Assembly: GCA_016718205.1 (NCBI GenBank)
Contig: JADKEB010000036.1
Coordinates: 52,148-116,147, forward strand
DNA: 64,000 bases
Origin: Saprospiraceae bacterium
GTDB taxonomy: Bacteria; Bacteroidota; Bacteroidia; Chitinophagales; Saprospiraceae
Direction of reading: 5' to 3'
Below the pieces are notes generated by a model that was given only the letters and a program-made list of their open reading frames with translations, did no database searches and was not told the origin of the DNA. The position numbers and the translations under genes are program-made. The stretch's first letter is position 1; each line of letters starts with the position of its first letter. Positions 26,572 to 48,473 of this stretch are shown in pieces.

Positions 26572-28038
26572 ATGGCTGATCCAAAAGGCTTTCAGAAGTA
26601 TAAAAGAGAAGTACCTTCATCAAGAATGGTAAATGAACGTTTGCAGGATTATAAGGAGATATATAATAAAACAGAAGATAGCTTTATTCATACGCAAGCT
26701 GCCAGATGCATGGACTGCGGTGTTCCTTTTTGTCATAGTGGCTGCCCATTGGGTAATATTATTCCTGATTTTAATGACGCAGTATACAAAGAAGATTGGC
26801 ACAAAGCTTTTCTGATTCTTTCTGAGACCAATAATTTTCCGGAGTTTACAGGAAGAATATGTCCGGCACCATGTGAAGCTGCATGCGTATTGGGTATAAA
26901 TAATCTTCCTGTCAGTATCGAAAATATCGAAAAACAAATCATCGAGCATGCATATGCTCACGGCTGGGTAAAAGCCAATAATATTAGGGTAGAATCAGGC
27001 AAATCTATTGCCGTCATCGGATCGGGGCCTGCAGGATTGGCAGCTGCATCGCAGCTCAATAAAGCTGGTCACCGAGTCACGGTGTACGAAAGAAATGAAA
27101 AACCGGGCGGACTGCTCAGATACGGAATTCCTGATTTTAAACTCGAAAAATGGGTGGTAGATCGTAGGGTCAAGCAAATGGAAGCATCGGGAATCACATT
27201 TATATGCAATGCCAATGTAGGTGTGAATACTGATATAAAGGAAATCGAAGCCAAAAACGATGCCATCGTACTCACAGGAGGAAGTACAATTCCCAGAGAT
27301 CTCAATATACCTGGCAGGGATGCAAAAGGTGTATTTTTCGCCATGGACTTTCTAGAAAAATCCAATAAATACATAGATAAAGGCTTCGAAAAATTGCCGG
27401 ATATATATGTTAAAGGCAAAAGAGTCGTCGTCATCGGTGGTGGCGATACTGGTGCGGACTGTGTAGGTACATCCAATAGACAGGGAGCAGCATCCGTCAC
27501 ACAAATAGAACTTCTCACTAAACCCGGTACATCAAGAACTATTAAAGATCCATGGCCACTCTGGCCAATGATACTTAGAACATCATCTTCTCATGAAGAA
27601 GGTTGTCAGAGAGAATGGTCCATTCAGACCAAACAGTTTGTAAAAAATGAAGAAGGCTACCTTACCGGGATTGAAATCGTAGATATTGTCTGGGAAATGA
27701 ACCCTGAAACGGGTAATTATGGATTAAGAGAGTTGGCTGAAACGATCAGGATATTGGAATGCGACGCGGTATTTATTGCGGCCGGATTTTTGTTCCCTCA
27801 AAAAGTAGGCATGATTGAACAGCTTGGAGTACAACTGGATGCAAGGGGCAATGTACAGACACAAAATTATCAAACAAATATTCCACATGTCTTTGCTGCG
27901 GGTGATATGCGGCGTGGACAGTCATTGGTAGTCTGGGCTATTCATGAAGGCAGGGAAGCAGCCCGTGCGATGGATGCTTACCTGCAAGGAGTATCATCTC
28001 TTGAAGGTAAAACAGTCAATGTTCTGGAAATGGTTTAG
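26572..28038 (+). CDS. gltD: Glutamate synthase small subunit (NADPH)
   Basis: 488 aa. Fe-S Cys clusters (CMDCGVPFCHSGCPLGN; CPAPCEAACV) and two dinucleotide-binding folds (VIGSGPAGLAAA; VIGGGDTGADC). Confidence 0.95.
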   Translation: MADPKGFQKYKREVPSSRMVNERLQDYKEIYNKTEDSFIHTQAARCMDCGVPFCHSGCPLGNIIPDFNDAVYKEDWHKAFLILSETNNFPEFTGRICPAPCEAACVLGINNLPVSIENIEKQIIEHAYAHGWVKANNIRVESGKSIAVIGSGPAGLAAASQLNKAGHRVTVYERNEKPGGLLRYGIPDFKLEKWVVDRRVKQMEASGITFICNANVGVNTDIKEIEAKNDAIVLTGGSTIPRDLNIPGRDAKGVFFAMDFLEKSNKYIDKGFEKLPDIYVKGKRVVVIGGGDTGADCVGTSNRQGAASVTQIELLTKPGTSRTIKDPWPLWPMILRTSSSHEEGCQREWSIQTKQFVKNEEGYLTGIEIVDIVWEMNPETGNYGLRELAETIRILECDAVFIAAGFLFPQKVGMIEQLGVQLDARGNVQTQNYQTNIPHVFAAGDMRRGQSLVVWAIHEGREAARAMDAYLQGVSSLEGKTVNVLEMV

Positions 28039-28107
28039 TTAAAAAAATAGGACTGATTGAATATCAAGTGTTAAGTGGGATAACAAAATGGTTCAGTTTA
28101 TTCTTAA

Positions 28108-28263
28108 CTAAGATTTGGCGTGAAATATAACATTACCAATTTTATTAAGAATAACCTTTTTTGAATGTTCATCAAACACTTTTATAAAGTAGTTTCCCGT
28201 TGGAAAATTGGATAAACTAAATTCTTCTTCATGTATATTTTGGGAAATATTTACATTTTGGTT
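28108..28263 (-). pseudogene. Remnant of a T9SS type A C-terminal sorting domain (last ~50 codons only)
   Basis: The minus-strand frame reads NQNVNISQNIHEEEFSLSNFPTGNYFIKVFDEHSKKVILNKIGNVIFHAKS*, with the L..L..G.Y.(I/V)K(V) pattern of Por_Secre_tail domains. Nothing upstream of it survives. Confidence 0.45.
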
Positions 28264-28561
28264 CTAAATTATGGTAATCATGTTTTCCCTTGATAATTCT
28301 AAGACATCATTTTCATCAAACTGATGAACTATATTATTTAGATTTTTCTCAAAAATTTGTAATATTTCATTGGTTGTGATGTAAGTTAACAAATTAAGGG
28401 CTTATTTTAAGATTGTAATCGTCTTTGTGTTGGGCAGGCTGATTTGCATCTGATGTAAGATTTTTATTTGGTAAATCTAATGTGTGTATTGCATGGTGAC
28501 CATGATTACTAAGATACAAACTTGGTCGTTTAGGTAGTTGAGCATCTACTAAAAATTTCAT
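28264..28561 (-). pseudogene. DUF5615 (PIN/Mut7-C-like) putative toxin, frameshifted
   Basis: MKFLVDAQLPKR...GHHAIHTLDLPNKNLTSD, then the frame is lost. The family-like C-terminus LLTYITTNEILQIFEKNLNNIVHQFDENDVLELSRENMITII* lies in another frame. Its ATG overlaps the DUF433 stop codon (ATGA). Confidence 0.6.
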
Positions 28562-28797
28562 GCCACTAGCTGTGTGATACTTTTTACAGTTGAAAGTTTG
28601 GCAGCAAATAAAAGGCACGCTTTTAAATCTTCTTCCTCAAGGTCAGGAAAATCATCTAAGATTTCTTGATGTGTCATTCCTGATGCCAATAATTCAAGTA
28701 TGCTACTTACAGTGTATCTCATACCTCTGATGACAGGTTTACCATGACATACTGCAGGATCTATAATAATTCTACTTAAGATATTCAATTTATTCAT
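28558..28797 (-). CDS. DUF433-domain protein (putative antitoxin partner of DUF5615)
   Basis: 79 aa with IIDPAVCHGKPVIRGMRYTVSSILELLASGMTHQEILDDFPDLEEEDLKACL, typical of DUF433. Confidence 0.75.
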   Translation of the reverse strand: MNKLNILSRIIIDPAVCHGKPVIRGMRYTVSSILELLASGMTHQEILDDFPDLEEEDLKACLLFAAKLSTVKSITQLVA

Positions 28798-29012
28798 TAG
28801 GTCAAATTAATCAAATAAACAACAAAGATATACAAATATTAGTTTTTGTTTTCGAGACGGAAAATTAATAAATGTGATCATTTGATTATCATCTATAAAC
28901 ATTTTTGCACAGTAAAGTATTTGAATTTCTAAAAATCAACATTTTTATTCTTATAAGATAGTCTATTTCTCTACATCATCCAAATCATAAATCTATTCTT
29001 AATAAAAACTGA

Positions 29013-29101
29013 AGCGGCAGACCGGAATCGAACAGGCTCCGAAGATTGGATTCTTCAATCAAGATCTGAAGTCTTGCGTGCTTACTGTACACTACTGCCG
29101 C
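29013..29101 (-). tRNA. Class II (long variable arm) tRNA-like gene with anticodon UCA (opal suppressor or Sec-like); possibly a pseudo-tRNA
   Basis: Minus strand folds as GCGGCAG-UA-GUGU-ACAGUAA-GCAC-G-CAAGA-CUUCAGA-UCUUG-[22-nt variable arm with GAAGA/UCUUC stem]-GCCUG-UUCGAUU-CCGGU-CUGCCGC-U. It has a perfect 7-bp acceptor and 5-bp anticodon stem and a canonical T loop. The T stem has a U:C mismatch and the D loop lacks GG. Confidence 0.5.
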
Positions 29102-29113
29102 ATAAAAAATATA

Positions 29114-29191
29114 GCACGGGTAGCCGGGATTGAACCGACGCAGAGAAAGTCAGTAAAATAAATCTGCCTTAATATAGCAAATATTACCCCA
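29114..29191 (-). pseudogene. Degenerate tRNA-like remnant (good T arm and 3' acceptor strand only)
   Basis: Minus strand ...GCAGA-[18 nt]-UCUGC-GUCGG-UUCAAUC-CCGGC-UACCCGUGC. The T arm is perfect and the 5' acceptor pairs over only about 5 bp. There is no normal anticodon loop or variable region. Confidence 0.4.
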
Positions 29192-29349
29192 TTCTTTAAA
29201 ATTTGTTCATATGAAGGATACAGTAATAAAAATTTACATCTGACTGTATATTTTTGGGGACACAGTATAATAGTTCTCTTTATCTAAATTTTGGAATAAA
29301 TAGTTTTTGCACAACCTACTTAAGTATATTTGCAATCATTTGGAGAAAT

Positions 29350-29515
29350 AAAAGATATAGAATCAGAAATGATGCTTCAATACTCAGAGACGGAAGTGCC
29401 ATTCCAAAAAATCTAAATATTCAAGGCACAAATGCAAACAGTATGTATTTTGCTCTTAATTTTCTTGAAAAGTCGAATATGTATATCGAAAAAGATTTTG
29501 AAAAGTTATCGATTT
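29350..29515 (+). pseudogene. Diverged partial copy of gltD (corresponds to about 27240..27410)
   Basis: ORF 29254..29547 reads RNDASILRDGSAIPKNLNIQGTNANSMYFALNFLEKSNMYIEKDFEKLS. GltD reads KNDAIVLTGGSTIPRDLNIPGRDAKGVFFAMDFLEKSNKYIDKGFEKLP. Confidence 0.7.
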
Positions 29516-29531
29516 GGATTGAGATTATTTT

Positions 29532-29696
29532 AGAGTATGTTGTTTAAATTTTCATGTTTGAGCGAAAGTATACAAATTTAATTTTAGACAAGGCATATTT
29601 TGCAGTCGTAGCCGGCAGCTTCGGCGAAAAATATAACGAAGCATAAAATTAAATTTGTCGCTTGCAGCCAAATGATGGAATTTTAAACATACTCTT
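29532..29696. mobile_element. MITE-like palindromic element, short copy (165 bp)
   Basis: About 55-nt terminal inverted repeats (agagtatgt..tttaaa..catgtttgagcg..aaatttaatttta / taaaattaaatttgtcgcttgcagccaaatgatggaattttaaacatactct). A second copy lies at 40667..40928. Confidence 0.75.
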
Positions 29697-29757
29697 AAGT
29701 ATTTCTTAAAAAATGGTCTGAATTTTATAATTGTTGAGACAAAAATATAAACCGTAA

Positions 29758-30784
29758 ATGTTAAGATTTATATTTATACTATTATTATTTACAGGCATTT
29801 TTTCATGTAATCATTTGTTGGGTAATACTTTCCAAAACTTCAATTGTGATACTATTTCAAAACCAGATATTGGGCCTGATACAAGTATTTGCGAAGGAAT
29901 TATTTTGCTTTTGAAGAATCAGTTTGAAACCCCAAATGCCACATATTTATGGTCAGATGGAAAAACCACTTCTACTATAGATGTAACAAAAGCAGGTGCC
30001 TACTGGCTGGAAACGACATTTTTACAATGCAAAAAAACGAGACACGATCAATATATATGTTTTGCCATCACCTAGAATAACCAGCTCTAAGGTCTACAGC
30101 TTTTGTGAAGGTAAAAGTGTAATAGTGGCGCTACAGGGAGATTTTAATACAGTGACATGGGATGACTTTCCCTCACAACAAAATATACTGGTATCATCTG
30201 CAAAAGCTTATAAGTACACAGCAATAAAAGGTCTATGTGAGTTGCGTTCAGAAATCAATGTCCGTGAAATCAAAATACCAAATCCTGCAATAGGAGATTA
30301 CATTGATAAGTGCCGTGGAGAAGTTCAAAATTTGTCTGTTCCAAGTTTCAGTGGTGCGATCAAATGGAGTAATGGATCCCAAACTAAAGGAATTCAGGTG
30401 ATTTCATCTGGATATTACAGCGTGACGCTCACAGATTCAGGATGTTCAAAATCAGATACAGTGTTTGTCGGATTTTTTGATTGTAAAGGAGAATTCCTCT
30501 ATTTTCCCAATATAATCTATCCAAAATCAGTTAACGGTAATGAAAATTTCTTTCCAATTGTAGATCAAAAATACACTGTAACCCAATATAAACTATCCGT
30601 ATTTAATACTTTTGGCAACCTGATTTTTGTTTCAGATGATATTAATAATCACTGGGATGGTCTTCAATTTGGAAATAGAGAGTCCCAACCGGGAGTATAT
30701 ACATATATTTGTACAGCCAGTGCTGATGGTCCTAAAAAGTTTGAAAACAAAACATTTACAGGGACGGTCACATTATTGAAGTAG
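29758..30784 (+). CDS. T9SS type B (gliding-motility-associated, CHU_C-like) C-terminal-domain surface protein, interrupted by a frameshift in an A7 run (30031..30037)
   Basis: Signal peptide present. Repeated C..sD.I.V modules. C-terminal YFPNIIYP..NGNENFFPI...YKLSVFNTFGNLIF...HWDG...GVYTYI matches the type B sorting domain. The ORFs 29758..30075 and 29996..30784 join if the run is A6. Confidence 0.75.
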
Positions 30785-30880
30785 CCTTATTCATAAACAA
30801 TGAGTGTTTCCATTAAGAATAAAAAAAACCGGATGACTATTTTCAAAGCCCCCGGTTTTTAAAACTATAATTGAAATCAA

Positions 30881-31735
30881 TTATTTTTTTGACCACATAG
30901 CAATGGACTCATTATTCATTTTGATATAGTCATTGTTTTTTGCTTCTGTTGCTTTAGTTAACGATTCTTTTGCAACAGCAATAGCTTCAGTGTACTTTCC
31001 GGCTTTAGCCAGAATAAGGCTATAACCTCTTAGATTCCAGAATTGATTTGCACCCATGCTTACCGCTTTTGCACCCCATTCCAATGCTTTGTTGATATCC
31101 TTTCCGCTATTAGAATAATAATTGGCAGCTGCCATATAATCATTGGCACTAGGACCTGCTAATGCCTGAGTGATACTTGCAACAACTTTAGCGTCAGTCA
31201 TAACATCTACAGTAAATCCAACTCTGGTTTTTTCCCATGCTATATACATTTCAGTAGTATTGTCAGTCAAATTAGAAAATCCAACAGAGAAAGTTTCAAC
31301 ATGATTGGGTATTGCAGTTGGAACTACAGATATTCTTGCTGCTTCATCGCTTTCTTTGTAGTTATCGCCACCTGGAGTACTAAGTCCGGCATCTTTGTGG
31401 AATATAACTTTCCATTCAGTGGCCCCAGGTAATGTAAATAAAGAATACTTGCCCTTCTTTAAATCCACACCATTGACTTTTACGTCATCGCTGAAGGTAA
31501 CTTTGGTGCCTTGATTTGCACCGGTACGCCACAGTTGACCATATGGAACAAGATCACCCATAACTTTACGACCTTTAGCACTCGGTCGGCTATAATCTAA
31601 ACTGATGGTAGACAGACCTACTGACTGCTCGATTTTTGCTCCCGGGCTGGCCGCAGGTGTTTTTACCTGAGCATTTGCACTTGAAAATATCATCAGGAAT
31701 GCTCCTGCAACTAAAAGATTAAAAATGTTTTTCAT
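30881..31735 (-). CDS. DUF2911-domain protein with a C-terminal TPR-like region
   Basis: 284 aa with a signal peptide. YSRPSAKGRKVMGDLVPYGQLWRTGANQGTKVTF and GKYSLFTLPG..EWKVIFHKD are typical of DUF2911. Confidence 0.7.
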   Translation of the reverse strand: MKNIFNLLVAGAFLMIFSSANAQVKTPAASPGAKIEQSVGLSTISLDYSRPSAKGRKVMGDLVPYGQLWRTGANQGTKVTFSDDVKVNGVDLKKGKYSLFTLPGATEWKVIFHKDAGLSTPGGDNYKESDEAARISVVPTAIPNHVETFSVGFSNLTDNTTEMYIAWEKTRVGFTVDVMTDAKVVASITQALAGPSANDYMAAANYYSNSGKDINKALEWGAKAVSMGANQFWNLRGYSLILAKAGKYTEAIAVAKESLTKATEAKNNDYIKMNNESIAMWSKK

Positions 31736-31852
31736 TGATTAAAATGTTTACAATTTACTGATTAAAAAAAAATTATTTTCAGTATTTAATACTGACCAGA
31801 ATAGTAAATAATAAATATTCTTAAAATGTTCAATTGATATCAAAAATAATTG

Positions 31853-32380
31853 TCAATTGTTGGCGTTTTTCTTTTTTTCAGAATGTATAATCTCCATTTT
31901 GGACTGACCTTCCTTAATTTTTATACTTCTTTGGTCTATGAAGGTTTTTATCAGTTTTTCTGAATCAAGTGGTTTTTGATTGATATGACGGTGGAAAAGA
32001 GTAAGCATAAATCTTGTCATATCTTCTGTGTAGTACAAGCCTTTTAATCTGAGATAATGTGAAAATCTGGAACCCTCTTCAAAATGCCAGTTGTACTCCC
32101 TCCATCGCCCCAATACGAAATAGAGTTTTTTTACCATGATATCTTCAGACACTTCCCTAAGAGGTTTTCTGGCATCTTCATCTGTTAGTTCCATAAGTTT
32201 TGAAAGTGCATCATCGATATCTCGTGGTATATAAATCCCGTATAACCTGGATTTTTTTATATTATCCTGATATGTTGAGTCATTGGGTATAACTTGTTTG
32301 GTTTTTTTATCTTGTCCAAAAGAGATATTATGAATAAGTACCACACAAAGCAATATACCAGACATCCTGTATAAATCCAT
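31853..32380 (-). CDS. Hypothetical secreted or lipid-anchored protein
   Basis: 175-aa ORF with an N-terminal hydrophobic segment. No confident family assignment. Confidence 0.45.
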   Translation of the reverse strand: MDLYRMSGILLCVVLIHNISFGQDKKTKQVIPNDSTYQDNIKKSRLYGIYIPRDIDDALSKLMELTDEDARKPLREVSEDIMVKKLYFVLGRWREYNWHFEEGSRFSHYLRLKGLYYTEDMTRFMLTLFHRHINQKPLDSEKLIKTFIDQRSIKIKEGQSKMEIIHSEKKKNANN

Positions 32381-32446
32381 AGGTCAAAAGAATTATGATA
32401 AAAGTTTAAACATACGGGTGTTTAACAAATTGCACAATTATAACAC

Positions 32447-32478
32447 CCTGCCTGAATACGTAGGCAGGCAGGCAGGGG
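32447..32478. repeat. GC-rich REP-like palindromic element, copy 3 (core only)
   Basis: CCTGCCTGaatacgtaggCAGGCAGGcagggg. Confidence 0.65.
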
Positions 32479-32763
32479 TATGTGGAGGAAAATGGCGTAA
32501 ACTAATTTCATTTCGTGGTTAGCCTAACAGTCATTATCGATTTAATAAAAAGTGTAATTTGTTATACACACTAAACATACTCTAAACGAAAAAAAGTGAT
32601 ATAATTGTTTCAAAATCAAATATTTTTAACTTCTGATTAACCTTAAAATGCATCGGTGCTAAAATTATTTACTTAACAAGACTACTAATAGTAAACAAAC
32701 CACTAATTTTACGGTTTAAAAATCAATCAGGTTTAAAAAAATAATTTTAAGATAAATTAGCTC

Positions 32764-33798
32764 ATGGCAGAAGTATTGGAGAAAAAAAAATCAGATAAAA
32801 AATTAGCGTCTCAAAATTATGACAAAGCTACTTATCTGAAATGGCTGGAGACGATGTACAGAATCAGAAGATTTGAAGAGAAGGGATTATTTGCATACTC
32901 ACAGCAGAAAATACGAGGTTTCTTCCATGTGTATATAGGTCAGGAAGCTATTGCAGGTGGCTTAGTATCAGCACTGAGAAAGGAAGACAAAATTGTGACA
33001 GCGTATCGCCAACATGGAATCGCACTCTCAAGAGGTTTAAGTCCGGCATCATGTATGGCTGAGCTATATGGTAAAGCCACAGGCTGTGTAAAAGGAAAGG
33101 GTGGGAGTATGCACTTTTTCTCTGCAGAACATAATTATTTCGGTGGCAATGGTATCGTAGGTGCTCAGATACCTATCGGTACAGGTATCGCTTTTGCAGA
33201 AAAATATAAAGGAACTGATAACTTATGCGTCACAATGTTCGGAGATGGAGCTGCACGTCAGGGAGCGCTGTATGAATCATTCAATATGGCTATGACATGG
33301 AAGCTGCCTGTCCTATACATCTGCGAAAACAATATGTACGCCATGGGTACTTCAGTGACCAGAACAAGCAATGTCCACGATCTGGCGAAGATAGGATTGT
33401 CTTTCGACATACCCAGTGAAAGCGTCGATGGTATGAATCCTGAATCGGTCCATGAAGCCCTCACTAGAGCAGCAGCGCACATCAGAGCAGGGAAAGGGCC
33501 ATATTATCTGGAAATAGAAACATACAGATACAGAGGACACTCTGTTTCGGATCCGGCCAAGTACCGTACTAAAGAAGAACTCGAAGCATATAAGGAAAAA
33601 GATCCATTAGTAGTAATACAGGATAGAATCATTAAACAAAAAATCGCTTCTCAAAAAGAAGTGGATGATATCATAGAAGCTATCAACAAAGAGATAGATG
33701 ATGCTATGGAATTTGCTGAAAATTCACCATATCCACTGCCTTCTGAGCTGTACGAAGATAATTATACGCAGAAGGACTATCCTTATATTACGGATTAA
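32764..33798 (+). CDS. pdhA: Pyruvate (2-oxoacid) dehydrogenase E1 component, alpha subunit
   Basis: 344 aa with the TPP-binding region (MFGDGAARQGALYESFNMAMTWKLPVLYICENNMYAMGT) and YRYRGHSVSDP. Confidence 0.85.
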   Translation: MAEVLEKKKSDKKLASQNYDKATYLKWLETMYRIRRFEEKGLFAYSQQKIRGFFHVYIGQEAIAGGLVSALRKEDKIVTAYRQHGIALSRGLSPASCMAELYGKATGCVKGKGGSMHFFSAEHNYFGGNGIVGAQIPIGTGIAFAEKYKGTDNLCVTMFGDGAARQGALYESFNMAMTWKLPVLYICENNMYAMGTSVTRTSNVHDLAKIGLSFDIPSESVDGMNPESVHEALTRAAAHIRAGKGPYYLEIETYRYRGHSVSDPAKYRTKEELEAYKEKDPLVVIQDRIIKQKIASQKEVDDIIEAINKEIDDAMEFAENSPYPLPSELYEDNYTQKDYPYITD

Positions 33799-45163: not shown

Positions 45164-45353
45164 ATAAATTTTTACTAAACTGAATACATACCAAATGCAC
45201 ACACAAAATGAGAGTCAAATTTTGAAAACAGTAAGAAAATCCTTACCAAAGCTACAACATATTCAAATTTAATTTATATTAAAAAAATTTGGTTGTTCCA
45301 TTTTGTTTTAATACTTTTGTTTTCTCATTAATTTTTTAACCAAAGTATCACAC

Positions 45354-48300
45354 ATGAAACAATTAGTATTTGCATTTTTATTTTTGATGGTGACCTTGAC
45401 TGTCTTCGGACAACGAAAAATCACAGGTTTGGTCACCAATGCCGCAGGAGAGCCTCAAATTGGCGCCAATATAGCCGTTAAAGACGCTCCGGCATCTGGT
45501 TCTATTACTGATTTTGATGGTAAGTATGAAATCACAGTACCTACAGATGCCAAAATGCTTATCTTCAGCTACACGGGATTCGAAACCAAGGAAGTGGAGA
45601 TTGGTGCATCGGATGTCATCGATGTCATCATGGACGAAGGAAAACTTCTTGAAGAAGTCGTCGTTACGGCTTTGGGTTTTACGACAAAAAAAGACAGGTC
45701 AGGCTCGACTGCATCCAGCGTCAACAAGTCGGCAATTAAATCATCAGGAGAACCAAATTTGCTTAATAGTCTGGGGAAAAACCGGGTGCGCCCGGTCATC
45801 GTGGATGGTGTGCCGATGTCTAATGACAATCTATATGGATCTGGATCATCCAGATCGGGAGGGGTGTCACAGTCATCACGTATCAATGACATCAACCCTG
45901 AAGATGTGGAATCCATTCAAATTCTAAAAGGAGCATCTGCCGCCGCATTATGGGGCTCCAGGGCAGCAAATGGGGTGTTGATGATTACTACTAAATCCGG
46001 AAAACTGAATCAAAAAATGAAAATCAGCGTATCTTCATCCTATTCAATAGATGAGATCAATAAAAGACACCCTCTTCAATCTACCTTTGGGCAGGGAGCA
46101 GCAGGTGTATTTGTTGAAGGAGGTGCCAATTCATGGGGAGATAAAATCGCAAATAGGTCTGGTGAGGCGGATGCTTTAAATATTGCGGGTCAAAGATTTG
46201 AAGGCGATAATGGCCGAATTGTATATCCCATCACCAAAAAAAATTCTAAACAAACTTTTGTCGACGAAAATTTTAACCAGGTTTTTCAGCAAGGTTTTGT
46301 AACGGATAATAACATCACCTTCTCTGGTGGTGGTGCTAAAACCAATAATTACTTTTCGGTAGGATACTTGACACAGGAAGGTATAGTAAAAAACAGCGAA
46401 TATACCAGAGCAACAGTTAGATTTAACAATCAAACGTTTATGTCAGATAAATTTGTTCTGACAACAAAGGCCAATTATGTTTATTCAACTGGAAACAGAA
46501 TACAGCAAAACTCCAATACGGCTGGACTTTATCTTGGATTGTTGAGAACTCCAGCAGATTTTGATAATTCAACTTACAAAGGAACCCATATAAGTGCTTC
46601 GGGTGTAGCCACAACAGGTCGACAAAGAAGTTATAGAAGACCTTTAGGTGATAATATCAATCCAACGTGGAACAATCCACTCTGGACTACCAATGAACAA
46701 AAAGCTCCTAATACAGTTCAGAGGTTTGCATTTTCCTCCAACTTGAATTATTCTCCTGTCAAATGGCTGCAGTTGGACTTAAGAGGTGGTTTGGATGGAT
46801 ATACTGATGACAGGACATATTTCTCTCCAATAGGTTCAGCAGCATTCAATACTGGAAGACTTGAGTCAGAAATTTTTAAAAATTCCGAAGTCAATCTTGA
46901 CCTGATTGGTAGAACAGAATTTGGAAAGCTGATGGATGGACAGATAGGCATCAATGGTACACTTGGTTTTAATATCAACGATAGAACTAGGTATTCTGAT
47001 TTTGCATCTTCACAAATTTTCCTGCTTCCATCAGATATTCAAAATTTTAGCAATAGCAGGTCTCCTTATGAAGTAAATAACAACAAAAATCAAATAAGGT
47101 CTAATAGATTGTACGGTATACTAACAATGGATTATGATGATCAAGTCTTTGTTAATTTATCTGGCACACAAGAAGCTGCCTCATCAGTAGCAGGTACTTA
47201 TTTTTATCCATCAGCAGATTTAGCGTGGCAGTTTACCAAATCCATAATACCAGCCAATGATATCTTATCATTTGGTAAAATAAGATTGTCCTATGGACAG
47301 GTAGGCGTTCAACCTGCGGCTTATTGATTCAAAACAACTTATGAGCAGTTTGCTTACGGGACTTACGATGATGCTTTAGATATCAATGAATTTGGTGGAG
47401 GATTTCGTGTTAATGATGATTTAGGCAACCCTAATTTAAAGCCTGAAATAAAAACTGAATTTGAAATTGGAACAGACCTTAGGTTGCTAAAAGACAAAGT
47501 CACTCTTGGTTTGACATATTACAAGAATACCATAGATAATATTCTTTTGGCCATTAATCTCACTCCAAGTTCAGGTTTTTTATCCCGATATGCAAATGCT
47601 GCTAAAATGGAAAACAAAGGTTTGGAAGTCGACCTTGGTATAAAAGTTTTTGACGAACAAAAATTTGGATTGGAGCTTTATGGTAACTTCAACAACAACT
47701 GTAACAAAGTACTGGATTTGTCAGGGGTAGAAAGATTGGCATTGACCGATCAGTCTATTACTTCCAATGCCATCGTAGGACAACCACTGGGCATTATGTT
47801 TGCTTCAAAAGCGGCCAGAAAAGCTGATGGAAGTCTGGCACTGAACGAAAGAGGATTCCCAACTCTGGCTCCTGAACAAGGAATAGTAGGTGACCCAAAT
47901 CCCGATTGGAGAGGAGGAGCAGGCATCAGAGGCCGTTATGGCAAATTGAATTTCAATGTCTTATTTGAGACATATCAAGGGGCTGATTTTGCTGAAAGAA
48001 CAAGATTTGTACTCCTTGCATTCGGTACATATCAGGATGTAGGAAATGAAGTGACACTAACCAAGGATTTAGTTAACAGTGCAGGCAAATTATTTACTGC
48101 AGGTACTACTGTAAGAGGAAATATTCAAAACTTTGGAGCTGGTGACGTTTTATTGGATGAAGGTTGGTACTCATCTCTTGGCGGTGGATTAGGAGGATCA
48201 GCCATCAATGAATTTGCCGTAGCTGACGGTAGCTGGACAAGACTTAGAGAAGTTTCTCTTGAATATAGTTTTTCAGGAAAAGCACTAAGCAAGATCGCTA

Positions 48301-48473
48301 AGTTATCTTCCATTGATGTGTCAATATCTGGTAGAAACCTGGCGATATGGACTGATATTTTAGGCATTGATCCTGAAGTAAATCAATCAGGAGTGGATAA
48401 TGGTTTTGGAATAGAGTACTTCACCAATCCAAGTACAAAATCCTGGGTGGCATCCGTTAAACTTAATTTTTAA
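45354..48473 (+). pseudogene. SusC/RagA-type TonB-dependent receptor with a single in-frame TGA (47325..47327) and an apparently shortened plug
   Basis: CarboxypepD_reg N-terminal domain (ITGLVTNAAGEPQIGANIAVK), plug motifs (INPEDVESIQILKGASAAALWGSRAANGVLMITTKSG) and a C-terminal barrel ending ASVKLNF. ORFs 45354..47327 and 47484..48473 are in the same frame, and the sequence between them reads through as FKTTYEQFAYGTYDD... Confidence 0.8.

Follow-up and report, generated by a model that had tools for sequence, protein, structure and literature searches.

We analyzed a 64,000-nucleotide (nt) stretch of contig JADKEB010000036.1 from a Saprospiraceae bacterium (hereafter, the window), in which a first-pass annotation made from the sequence alone had proposed an orphan class II transfer RNA (tRNA)-like gene with a UCA anticodon at positions 29013–29101 of the minus strand. 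ARAGORN called a tRNA with the anticodon tca there, the only one in the 64-kb window, and labeled it tRNA-SeC. The Rfam model RF00005 spans the same 89 nt from end to end with 41.9 bits, above rather than below its gathering score of 29 (E = 1.7e-5 for the window), so that both programs bear out the proposed gene. With this score and a long hairpin variable arm, it belongs to the generic class II tRNAs, and we conclude that the 89-nt sequence is a genuine tRNA-shaped gene. Comparison with its relatives indicates that it is probably what decay has left of a conserved module of Bacteroidota, which consists of two or three tandem class II-shaped tRNA genes beside the gene of an inactive RNase III-like protein.

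A tRNA(UCA) gene and the remnant of a second tRNA

The parsed structure agreed with the stems and loops described in the first-pass annotation. A 7-bp acceptor stem (GCGGCAG/CUGCCGC) is followed by U8 and A9; an eighth acceptor pair would be U:U and the T stem has five positions, giving a 7/5 branch. The 4-bp D stem (GUGU/GCAC), which includes one U–G pair, closes a 7-nt loop, ACAGUAA, without GG. After G26, the anticodon stem CAAGA/UCUUG carries the loop CUUCAGA, which places U34, C35, and A36 in the anticodon and G37 next to it. The 22-nt variable arm at 29038–29059 (minus strand; AUUGAAGAAUCCAAUCUUCGGA) forms a hairpin, GAAGA/UCUUC, with the loop AUCCAA containing the UCCA motif of the family described below; its stem of 5–6 bp differs from the GGAGA/UCUCC of the closest homologue (genome G002, below) by a compensated change. 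The T stem GCCUG/CCGGU has a U:C mismatch at its fourth pair (U52:C62) and the loop UUCGAUU, and the discriminator is U73. The U discriminator, G37, the missing GG, and the mismatch had each been noted before and were all seen in the sequence.

The fold of the window copy was less convincing than its parts. The minimum-energy structure is a cloverleaf with a distorted T arm and has an energy of –25.9 kcal/mol, which is marginal in comparison with shuffled sequences (z = –1.19; 27 of 200 shuffles equally good). The homologue in G002 folds at –34.7 kcal/mol (z = –3.2), leaving the window copy ~9 kcal/mol weaker, and the RF00005 score is ~18 bits under those of intact family members (59–63 bits). 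That the window tRNA is more than a chance fold thus follows mainly from homology, namely from a copy of 81% identity within the genus and at least 74 family members with compensatory changes in their stems.

Upstream of the gene, on the same strand, lies the remnant of another tRNA. Its 3′ third (29114–29145) aligns to an intact 91-nt tRNA(UCG) of G002 (locus L002, 1403–1493) and retains the end of the variable arm, a T arm (GUCGG-UUCAAUC-CCGGC), the 3′ acceptor strand UACCCGU, and G73. The 5′ two-thirds (29146–29190) are degenerate: in a pairwise alignment with G002, a 13-nt deletion was found, and the 5′ acceptor strand, the anticodon arm, and a part of the variable arm were lost or unrecognizable. 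Neither ARAGORN nor Rfam called a tRNA at 29114–29190. We considered the duplication of an attachment site as the origin of the fragment and rejected it: the fragment is a truncated tRNA(UCG) and has no second copy in the genome.

A module of tandem tRNA genes and an RNase III-like protein gene

Among the 42 other species of the genus, a full-length homologue of the window tRNA was found in one, a Saprospiraceae metagenome-assembled genome (MAG; record JAWKLK010000009, here G002), with 81% identity, a conserved UCA anticodon, and a perfect T stem. In G002, a second class II-shaped tRNA of 91 nt with the anticodon UCG lies 7 nt upstream of the tRNA(UCA), and the pair comes directly after an open reading frame (ORF) of 299 amino acids with a weak RNase III-like match in Pfam. 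A first search with this protein returned two relatives on unrelated metagenomic contigs, L004 and L005, each followed by a class II tRNA(UCA), and a pattern scan of reference genomes identified the same protein followed by a tRNA(UCA) in Lacihabitans sp. LS3-19 (NZ_RJUA01000001; L006, 4767–5787), an isolate from a different order. The extreme rarity suggested by the single-sequence search reflected the sensitivity of word-based searching, as 281 clusters (90% identity) came up once profiles were used. With 92 representatives at E ≤ 1e-30 out of 1.84 billion, the family is small. Named sources of the proteins were Bacteroidales and Bacteroidaceae MAGs, with the annotation always reading "hypothetical protein." A survey of 401 genomes across the phylum gave one weak protein match with no tRNA beside it, indicating that the module is rare in the reference species sampled.

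To collect the tRNAs, we used a looser pattern with a fixed D arm and the anticodons UCA or UCG only, a choice that introduces an ascertainment bias. The pattern matched at least 120 loci in the metagenome collection and 6 loci in IMG/VR, and the counts for the tRNA family rest on the matches listed. ARAGORN recognized at least 111 class II tRNA(UCA) genes in the metagenomic and viral loci together with L004, L006 (Lacihabitans), and L007; one of them, in L066, is identical to the window copy. The sequences fell into two subfamilies. Subfamily A, to which the window copy belongs, starts with the acceptor GCG and has U73; its at least 74 unique sequences, all 7/5, were recovered from metagenomes of rumen, gut, termite, and sediment, where the contigs reach 440 kb. 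Subfamily B has the acceptor AGGxxCU and G73 and is found in phage tRNA arrays and viral contigs.

Within subfamily A, pairing was ~100% at every stem position, while acceptor pairs 5–7, anticodon pairs 3 and 5, and T pair 3 each showed three to five types of Watson–Crick or wobble pairs. Compensatory versions were found for the anticodon stem (CAAGA/UCUUG, CAGGC/GCCUG, and CAGGA/UCCUG) as well as for the T stem (GCGGG/CCCGU, GUGGG/CCCAU, and GCCGG/CCGGU). This covariation, combined with the near-perfect pairing, indicates that the structure is under selection.

Clustering of the neighboring genes placed one protein family of ~300–366 amino acids beside the subfamily A tRNAs, mostly 1–250 nt downstream and on the same strand; the gene is upstream of the tRNAs in Saprospiraceae and Lacihabitans and divergent in a few loci. 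A class II tRNA(UCG) nearly always accompanies the tRNA(UCA) (at least 61 genes, at least 47 of them unique), a class II tRNA(CCG) is additionally present in at least 14 loci, and Rfam rates both as tRNA-like with 44–52 bits. The commonest order is UCA-UCG-protein. Where the protein gene is near full length (72 of the loci listed), one or more module tRNAs lie within 700 nt in 70 cases. A check anchored on the protein avoids the anticodon bias of the pattern, and for this, we took four further family proteins, found in six places, together with the three earlier ones. The six places showed UCA, in some CCG, then UCG and the protein; overall, a tRNA(UCA) adjoins the protein gene in nine of nine places, with UCG, alone or with CCG, also present in six of these.

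The genes are packed tightly. In L004 (1857–1860), the stop codon of the protein abuts G1 of the tRNA(UCA), while in L005 (1010–1024), the last ~15 nt of the ORF overlap the 5′ end of the tRNA, inside which the contig ends. Similarly tight packing was seen in L135 (2499–2501), and in rumen-type loci, the last tRNA ends 1–25 nt before the start codon. Given such overlap or abutment, processing of the tRNA ends would cut the messenger RNA at or inside the ends of the coding sequence and could couple the two; the tRNAs are probably co-transcribed with the protein gene.

The surroundings of the module vary by locus and include the chromosomal genes mfd, hsp20, lptD, and methylmalonyl-CoA mutase. 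Toxin–antitoxin (TA) genes are often nearby (PIN in L122, ParE in L004, and DUF433/DUF5615 in the window). Two features were seen beside single modules: a 13-nt tandem repeat, AATGGCGTTTCCA, in about five copies directly downstream of the tRNA pair of G002 (L003, 10095–10167) and an abiF RNA motif (RF03085, 53 bits) in the metagenomic locus L125 (5710–5748). At eight further loci among those listed, U73 class II tRNA(UCA) genes with the acceptors GCGAGUG or GCGGACG and the anticodon loops CUUCAGA, UUUCAGU, or UUUCAAU had no detectable RNase III-like gene near them; six of the eight encode CCA, and two do not. These loci may represent a third context or subfamily.

The partner protein was modeled with AlphaFold2 from an alignment of 25 sequences (predicted local distance difference test, 85). 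The model consists of a helical RNase III-type domain at residues ~23–158, an α-β-β-β-α double-stranded RNA-binding domain (dsRBD) at residues ~166–239, a single basic helix of ~75 residues rich in K, R, E, and A, and a short C-terminal helix with a conserved KRRxLEDK motif. The best Foldseek match was the mitoribosomal protein mL44 (7qh7_c, E = 2.5e-8), and RNase III of Thermotoga and Aquifex followed at ~1e-6. In a HMMER alignment to the RNase III of Campylobacter jejuni, the motif NERLEFLGD corresponds to NSRYVFxGM of the family (NSRYVFLGM in this alignment), and the second acidic motif (D..E) is replaced by HKHIFVY. With both acidic motifs replaced, the metal-binding catalytic acids are absent. 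The protein is thus predicted to combine an RNase III fold and a dsRBD in a catalytically dead form, and it had no match in PADLOC, PHROGs, or NCBIfam.

Measured against this family, the window tRNA is the UCA member of the module in a partly decayed state. Its body has all the features of the family (GCG with U73, GUGU-N7-GCAC, YUUCARA, and the UCCA hairpin) except for the GG of the D loop. Among the 74 subfamily A members in the matches listed, it is one of two without this GG and one of two with a broken fourth T pair. Both defects, which had suggested a dead tRNA as one option in the first-pass annotation, are therefore outliers within its own family. Instead of an intact tRNA(UCG), the window has the truncated remnant, and no RNase III-like/dsRBD gene stands beside the tRNA; tblastn found no match for the partner protein either in window positions 27000–33000 or in the rest of the genome. 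What the window holds is thus a module in decay, which has lost its protein gene and most of its tRNA(UCG), along with G18G19 and one T-stem pair of its tRNA(UCA). For these reasons, the window tRNA is most likely inactive or barely active. As the other stems are perfect and the change in the variable arm is compensated, the decay is recent or partial. The gene is an orphan only in having lost its partners and not in being one of a kind, since it belongs to a large conserved family.

The interval between gltD and a DUF2911 gene that holds the tRNA is not syntenic even in the closest relative, in agreement with the earlier description of a variable accessory region. The other elements described from the sequence were all present. 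At 28394–28797 (minus strand), an ORF resembling DUF433 antitoxins (91 bits) and a short ORF overlap, the latter matching the PIN-like toxin domain DUF5615 weakly and over 33 of 110 profile positions; the two form a decayed type II TA pair adjoining the tRNA. A repeat of ~170 bp at ~29525–29705, earlier described as a miniature inverted-repeat transposable element, has many copies of 82–90% identity in the genome (on contigs C18, C20, and C23 and twice on C31) and is also found in many other species of the genus. No phage genes were found near the tRNA. The earlier account erred in treating the second tRNA fragment as incidental debris, as the alignment with G002 identifies it as the truncated partner from the same module.

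Identity features and possible working of the module

We compared the three tRNA classes of the module with the ordinary tRNAs of the window genome. The UCA class has G1–C72, C2–G71, G3–C70, U73, and the anticodon loop CUUCAGA with G37. The UCG class has A1–U72 or G1·U72, G73, and the loop UUUCGGG, and the CCG class A1–U72, G73, and the loop CUCCGGG. GUGU-AAYGGYA-GCAC is the D arm of all three, the T loop is canonical throughout, and about a third of the genes encode CCA. The tRNA-Gly genes of the window genome read GCGGAAG...CUUCCGC-U-CCA, with the T stem GCGGG/CCCGU, and in Gly(UCC), the anticodon loop is CUUCCAA. G1–C72, C2–G71, G3–C70, and U73 are the acceptor determinants of bacterial glycyl-tRNA synthetase (GlyRS). 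Several UCA-class members have exactly the acceptor and T stems of these tRNA-Gly genes, and by this likeness, the UCA class is Gly-type in its aminoacyl-acceptor half.

The variable arm forms a 5–6-bp hairpin with UCCA in its loop in 57 of the 75 UCA-class, 46 of the 47 UCG-class, and all 11 CCG-class sequences among the matches listed; none of 20 ordinary class II tRNAs (Leu, Ser, and Tyr) has this motif in its variable arm. The loop is AUUCCAA in G002 and CUUCCAA(C) in the UCG and CCG classes, the latter equaling the anticodon loop of Gly(UCC). In subfamily B, the corresponding loop is CUCCAAA, the anticodon loop of tRNA-Trp, carried by a 5-bp stem on a tRNA-Trp-like body. The anticodons UCA, UCG, and CCG differ from the Gly anticodons UCC and CCC at position 36 and lie one or two steps from the Trp anticodon CCA. 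Taken together, these features make glycine the most likely amino acid of the UCA class, while the UCG and CCG classes could be charged with Trp, Gly, or Arg. A derivation from tRNA-Leu was considered and rejected: the 5′ half resembled Leu(UAG) when compared with class II tRNAs only, the acceptor and T half matched tRNA-Gly once class I tRNAs were included, and the D arm turned out to be specific to the family.

Our best guess at the working of the intact module is that its tRNAs are chargeable adaptors whose true anticodon would read UGA (or CGA and CGG) and whose extra UCCA arm would supply the anticodon signal that the synthetase needs. The UCA member would most likely be charged with glycine, and the dead RNase III/dsRBD protein may be a dedicated tRNA binder that controls the maturation or availability of the tRNAs. 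The conserved U33, the 7-nt loops, the defined anticodons, the class-specific discriminators, G18G19, and the T loop favor an adaptor function. The partner gene itself showed no clear enrichment of CGA and CGG, and 12 of 55 partner genes stop with TGA in comparison with 34 of 92 background ORFs, a mild and unconvincing under-use.

Several observations weigh against this interpretation or against parts of it. The UCCA loop fits Gly (UCC followed by A37) and Trp (U33 followed by CCA) alike, and the UCG and CCG classes have a Trp-like A1–U72/G73 end rather than a Gly-like one. CGA and CGG make up ~25% of Arg codons and TGA about one-third of stops in the genes flanking intact modules, so that a cell would pay heavily for strong opal suppression or for efficiently decoding CGA and CGG as anything but Arg. 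This cost speaks for strict regulation of the tRNAs, for UCG and CCG members that carry Arg, or for a role outside translation; strict regulation would give the partner protein a plausible task. Since the D stem and some of the anticodon arm were preset in the search pattern, nothing can be read from their invariance. Regarding the decay of the window copy, its acceptor and anticodon stems are perfect and the change in its variable-arm stem relative to G002 is compensated, showing that selection acted for at least a part of its history, and the tRNA may retain residual activity.

Alternatively, the RNAs of intact modules could be structured ligands of the dead RNase III/dsRBD protein, forming a ribonucleoprotein or a system resembling type III TA, in which case the window holds an orphan RNA. 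Type III TA loci are likewise laid out with paralogous RNA genes in a row just ahead of a nuclease-fold gene, and a D arm and UCCA hairpin common to three classes with different acceptor ends would suit one protein reading the shared parts. The sporadic distribution, the varied genomic contexts, the repeated proximity to TA genes (PIN, ParE, and DUF433/DUF5615), and the cost of decoding UGA, CGA, and CGG in general point in the same direction. A pure ligand would not, however, need the features for decoding and charging that are conserved here, from U33, the 7-nt loops, and the three anticodons to the identity sets, T loop, G18G19, and the CCA of about a third of the genes. The protein is also without the catalytic residues on which a type III toxin RNase would depend, has no match in PADLOC or PHROGs, and is encoded in the reverse gene order in Saprospiraceae and Lacihabitans. 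We regard a purely ligand role as possible but tentative and place the chargeable adaptors with a protein gatekeeper somewhat above it.

A more far-reaching version of the adaptor model would make the module a self-contained recoding device. The extra hairpin would let GlyRS (UCA) or the Trp or Gly synthetase (UCG and CCG) charge the tRNAs regardless of their anticodons, such that Gly or Trp would be inserted at UGA, CGA, and CGG; the dead protein would gate the release of the tRNAs, for example under stress or phage attack, and the Trp-type suppressors of phages would be relatives. On the present evidence, we consider this scenario unlikely.

For the window copy alone, one may ask whether it still works as a weak opal suppressor, for example by readthrough within a SusC/TonB-dependent-receptor-like gene (CarboxypepD_reg and Plug domains) at 45312–48473 of the plus strand. 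This gene contains one in-frame TGA (47325–47327, codon 671), as noted in the first-pass annotation, which speculatively linked it to the tRNA. The acceptor, D, anticodon, and variable-arm stems of the tRNA are intact, U33 and UCA are kept, the Rfam score is still over the threshold, the variable-arm change is compensated, and one receptor gene in the window is indeed broken by a TGA only. Against this, G18G19 and the fourth T pair, each kept in 72 of the 74 family members listed, are lost, the fold is weak with a distorted T arm, and both module partners are gone; moreover, by the general rules of tRNA identity, the G37 beside A36 and the combination of U73 with a class II body cast doubt on how efficiently the tRNA could be charged and could decode. 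A genome-wide census of frames interrupted by a single stop, with at least 200 codons on both sides, found TGA in 13, TAG in 13, and TAA in 14 cases. By this census, which is crude and made without a homology check, there is no sign of genome-wide TGA recoding of the kind seen in codes 4 and 25. In the absence of a TGA excess, the receptor-like gene is most simply a pseudogene; the TGA exists, but its link to the tRNA is unsupported. A surviving suppressor function is accordingly unlikely.

Still less probable is that the window tRNA is a suppressor left behind by a TGA-recoded phage, an origin hinted at in the first-pass annotation. A related subfamily with the same D arm, our subfamily B, does occur in phage tRNA arrays and IMG/VR contigs (six loci), and the loop of its variable arm, CUCCAAA, is identical to the anticodon loop of tRNA-Trp. 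The connection is a distant one, though, as the window tRNA belongs to the other subfamily, with GCG and U73, a UCG partner, and an RNase III-like protein, which is found on large chromosomal contigs among mfd, lptD, and hsp20. A pattern anchored on the acceptor GCGGCAG matched nothing in viral contigs, the protein was absent from the five phage records searched, and no phage or prophage combining the U73 subfamily with the protein was found in the collections scanned; nor are there phage genes near the tRNA in the window.

Finally, a divergent selC encoding tRNA-Sec, named as an alternative in the first-pass annotation, can be dismissed with near certainty, as far as an assembly of 5.67 Mb and an estimated 92.8% completeness allows. 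The ARAGORN label follows from the UCA anticodon and long variable arm, and the genome does have selD. The window tRNA lacks, however, the 13-bp 8/5 branch, the 6-bp D stem with a 4-nt loop, and the G73 of tRNA-Sec, having a 7/5 branch, a 4-bp D stem with a 7-nt loop, and U73, just as the first-pass annotation had judged its architecture not to be that of bacterial tRNA-Sec. The tRNA-Sec model RF01852 gave it 38.1 bits, below the gathering threshold of 47 and in the range of the ordinary Leu and Ser tRNAs of the genome (37.7 and 37.0 bits). No match for selA was found in the assembly, and selB was not found either, the best match being an EF-Tu gene with 186.7 bits against a cutoff of 242. The selD gene (427 bits) lies directly downstream of selU, encoding tRNA 2-selenouridine synthase (337 bits; contig C21, 22291–24373), from which the selenium trait of the genome is selenouridine and not selenocysteine. 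G002 and Lacihabitans, both with intact modules, likewise lack selA. In practice, ARAGORN calls of "tRNA-SeC" in Bacteroidota genomes without selA and selB are likely members of the module tRNA family.

Comparison with known systems

Neither a 7/5 class II tRNA(UCA/UCG/CCG) set nor its RNase III-like partner in Bacteroidota was found in the literature searched, which included the paper on allo-tRNAs and a review of noncanonical tRNAs, and the module is apparently undescribed. Noncanonical tRNAs that read stop codons or reassigned sense codons show how the code changes and are useful for code engineering. Here, one worn-out gene led to a conserved and widespread set that has a seemingly obligate protein partner and is abundant in the metagenomes of rumen and gut Bacteroidales.

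Allo-tRNAs and the selC* tRNA-Cys are noncanonical bacterial tRNAs with a long variable arm and a tRNA-Sec-like shape; their anticodons include UCA and those for Arg codons, and some have U73 (Mukai et al., Nucleic Acids Res 2017, PMC5389517). Many of them lie close to TA genes or are pseudogenes, and roles as nonsense or missense suppressors or as regulatory RNAs have been proposed (PMC5389517). They were described in Acidobacteria, Clostridia, and Proteobacteria, and the string "Bacteroid" occurs zero times in the paper (PMC5389517). The allo-tRNAs have an acceptor/T branch of 8/4 or 9/3, whereas the window copy and all 74 unique members listed are regular 7/5. The selC* tRNA-Cys resembles the window tRNA in combining U73 with a UCA (or GCA) anticodon but is 8/4 with a bulged nucleotide and neighbors selB* or cysS*; the window copy lies beside TA debris and the intact loci beside the RNase III-like gene. 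No UCCA hairpin has been described for either group, unlike for the module tRNAs.

The Trp-type suppressors of subfamily B bring to mind the gut phages in which TGA is recoded to Trp (bioRxiv 10.1101/2021.08.26.457843). They share with the window's family a class II-like shape, the UCA anticodon, the D arm GUGU-AAUGGUA-GCAC, and a hairpin resembling an anticodon loop. In our data, Trp-type class II tRNA(UCA) genes were seen at eight of the loci listed, often beside an ordinary tRNA-Trp(CCA). They have A1–U72, G73, and the loop CUCCAAA in place of G1–C72, U73, and AUCCAA in the window copy, and they lie in phage tRNA arrays without an RNase III-like partner, whereas the window's subfamily is chromosomal, with a Gly-type end, UCG and CCG paralogues, and the protein.

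A Gly body reading UGA is found in the tRNA-Gly(UCA) of code 25 (SR1/Gracilibacteria) and in the suppressors derived from Escherichia coli glyT, which have G1–C72, C2–G71, G3–C70, and U73. The UCA class of the module has the same acceptor set and anticodon. Those tRNAs are, however, ordinary class I, and code 25 genomes are TGA-recoded; the module tRNA is long-armed, the window genome is unrecoded, and the UCG and CCG partners have G73.

Type III TA systems (ToxIN-like) consist of tandem structured RNA genes directly upstream of a nuclease-fold gene and are sporadic, accessory, and often near TA genes. Their RNAs are short pseudoknot repeats, while those of the module are complete tRNA cloverleaves, and the module protein lacks catalytic residues and in some lineages has the reverse gene order. 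On the protein side, the RNase III domain and dsRBD are shared with mL44 and bacterial RNase III, and mL44 is likewise a catalytically inactive relative of RNase III. The partner protein differs from them in falling below the Pfam threshold in most members, in its extra basic helix of ~75 residues and KRRxLEDK end, and in the linkage of its gene to tRNA genes. Set beside these systems, the tRNAs add a variant to the noncanonical suppressor-type tRNAs, and the tRNA–protein module is possibly a system of a new kind. Should its tRNAs be charged and take part in translation, it would be a chromosomal, protein-controlled alternative reading of UGA and two Arg codons; otherwise, it would be a new tRNA-mimic ribonucleoprotein.

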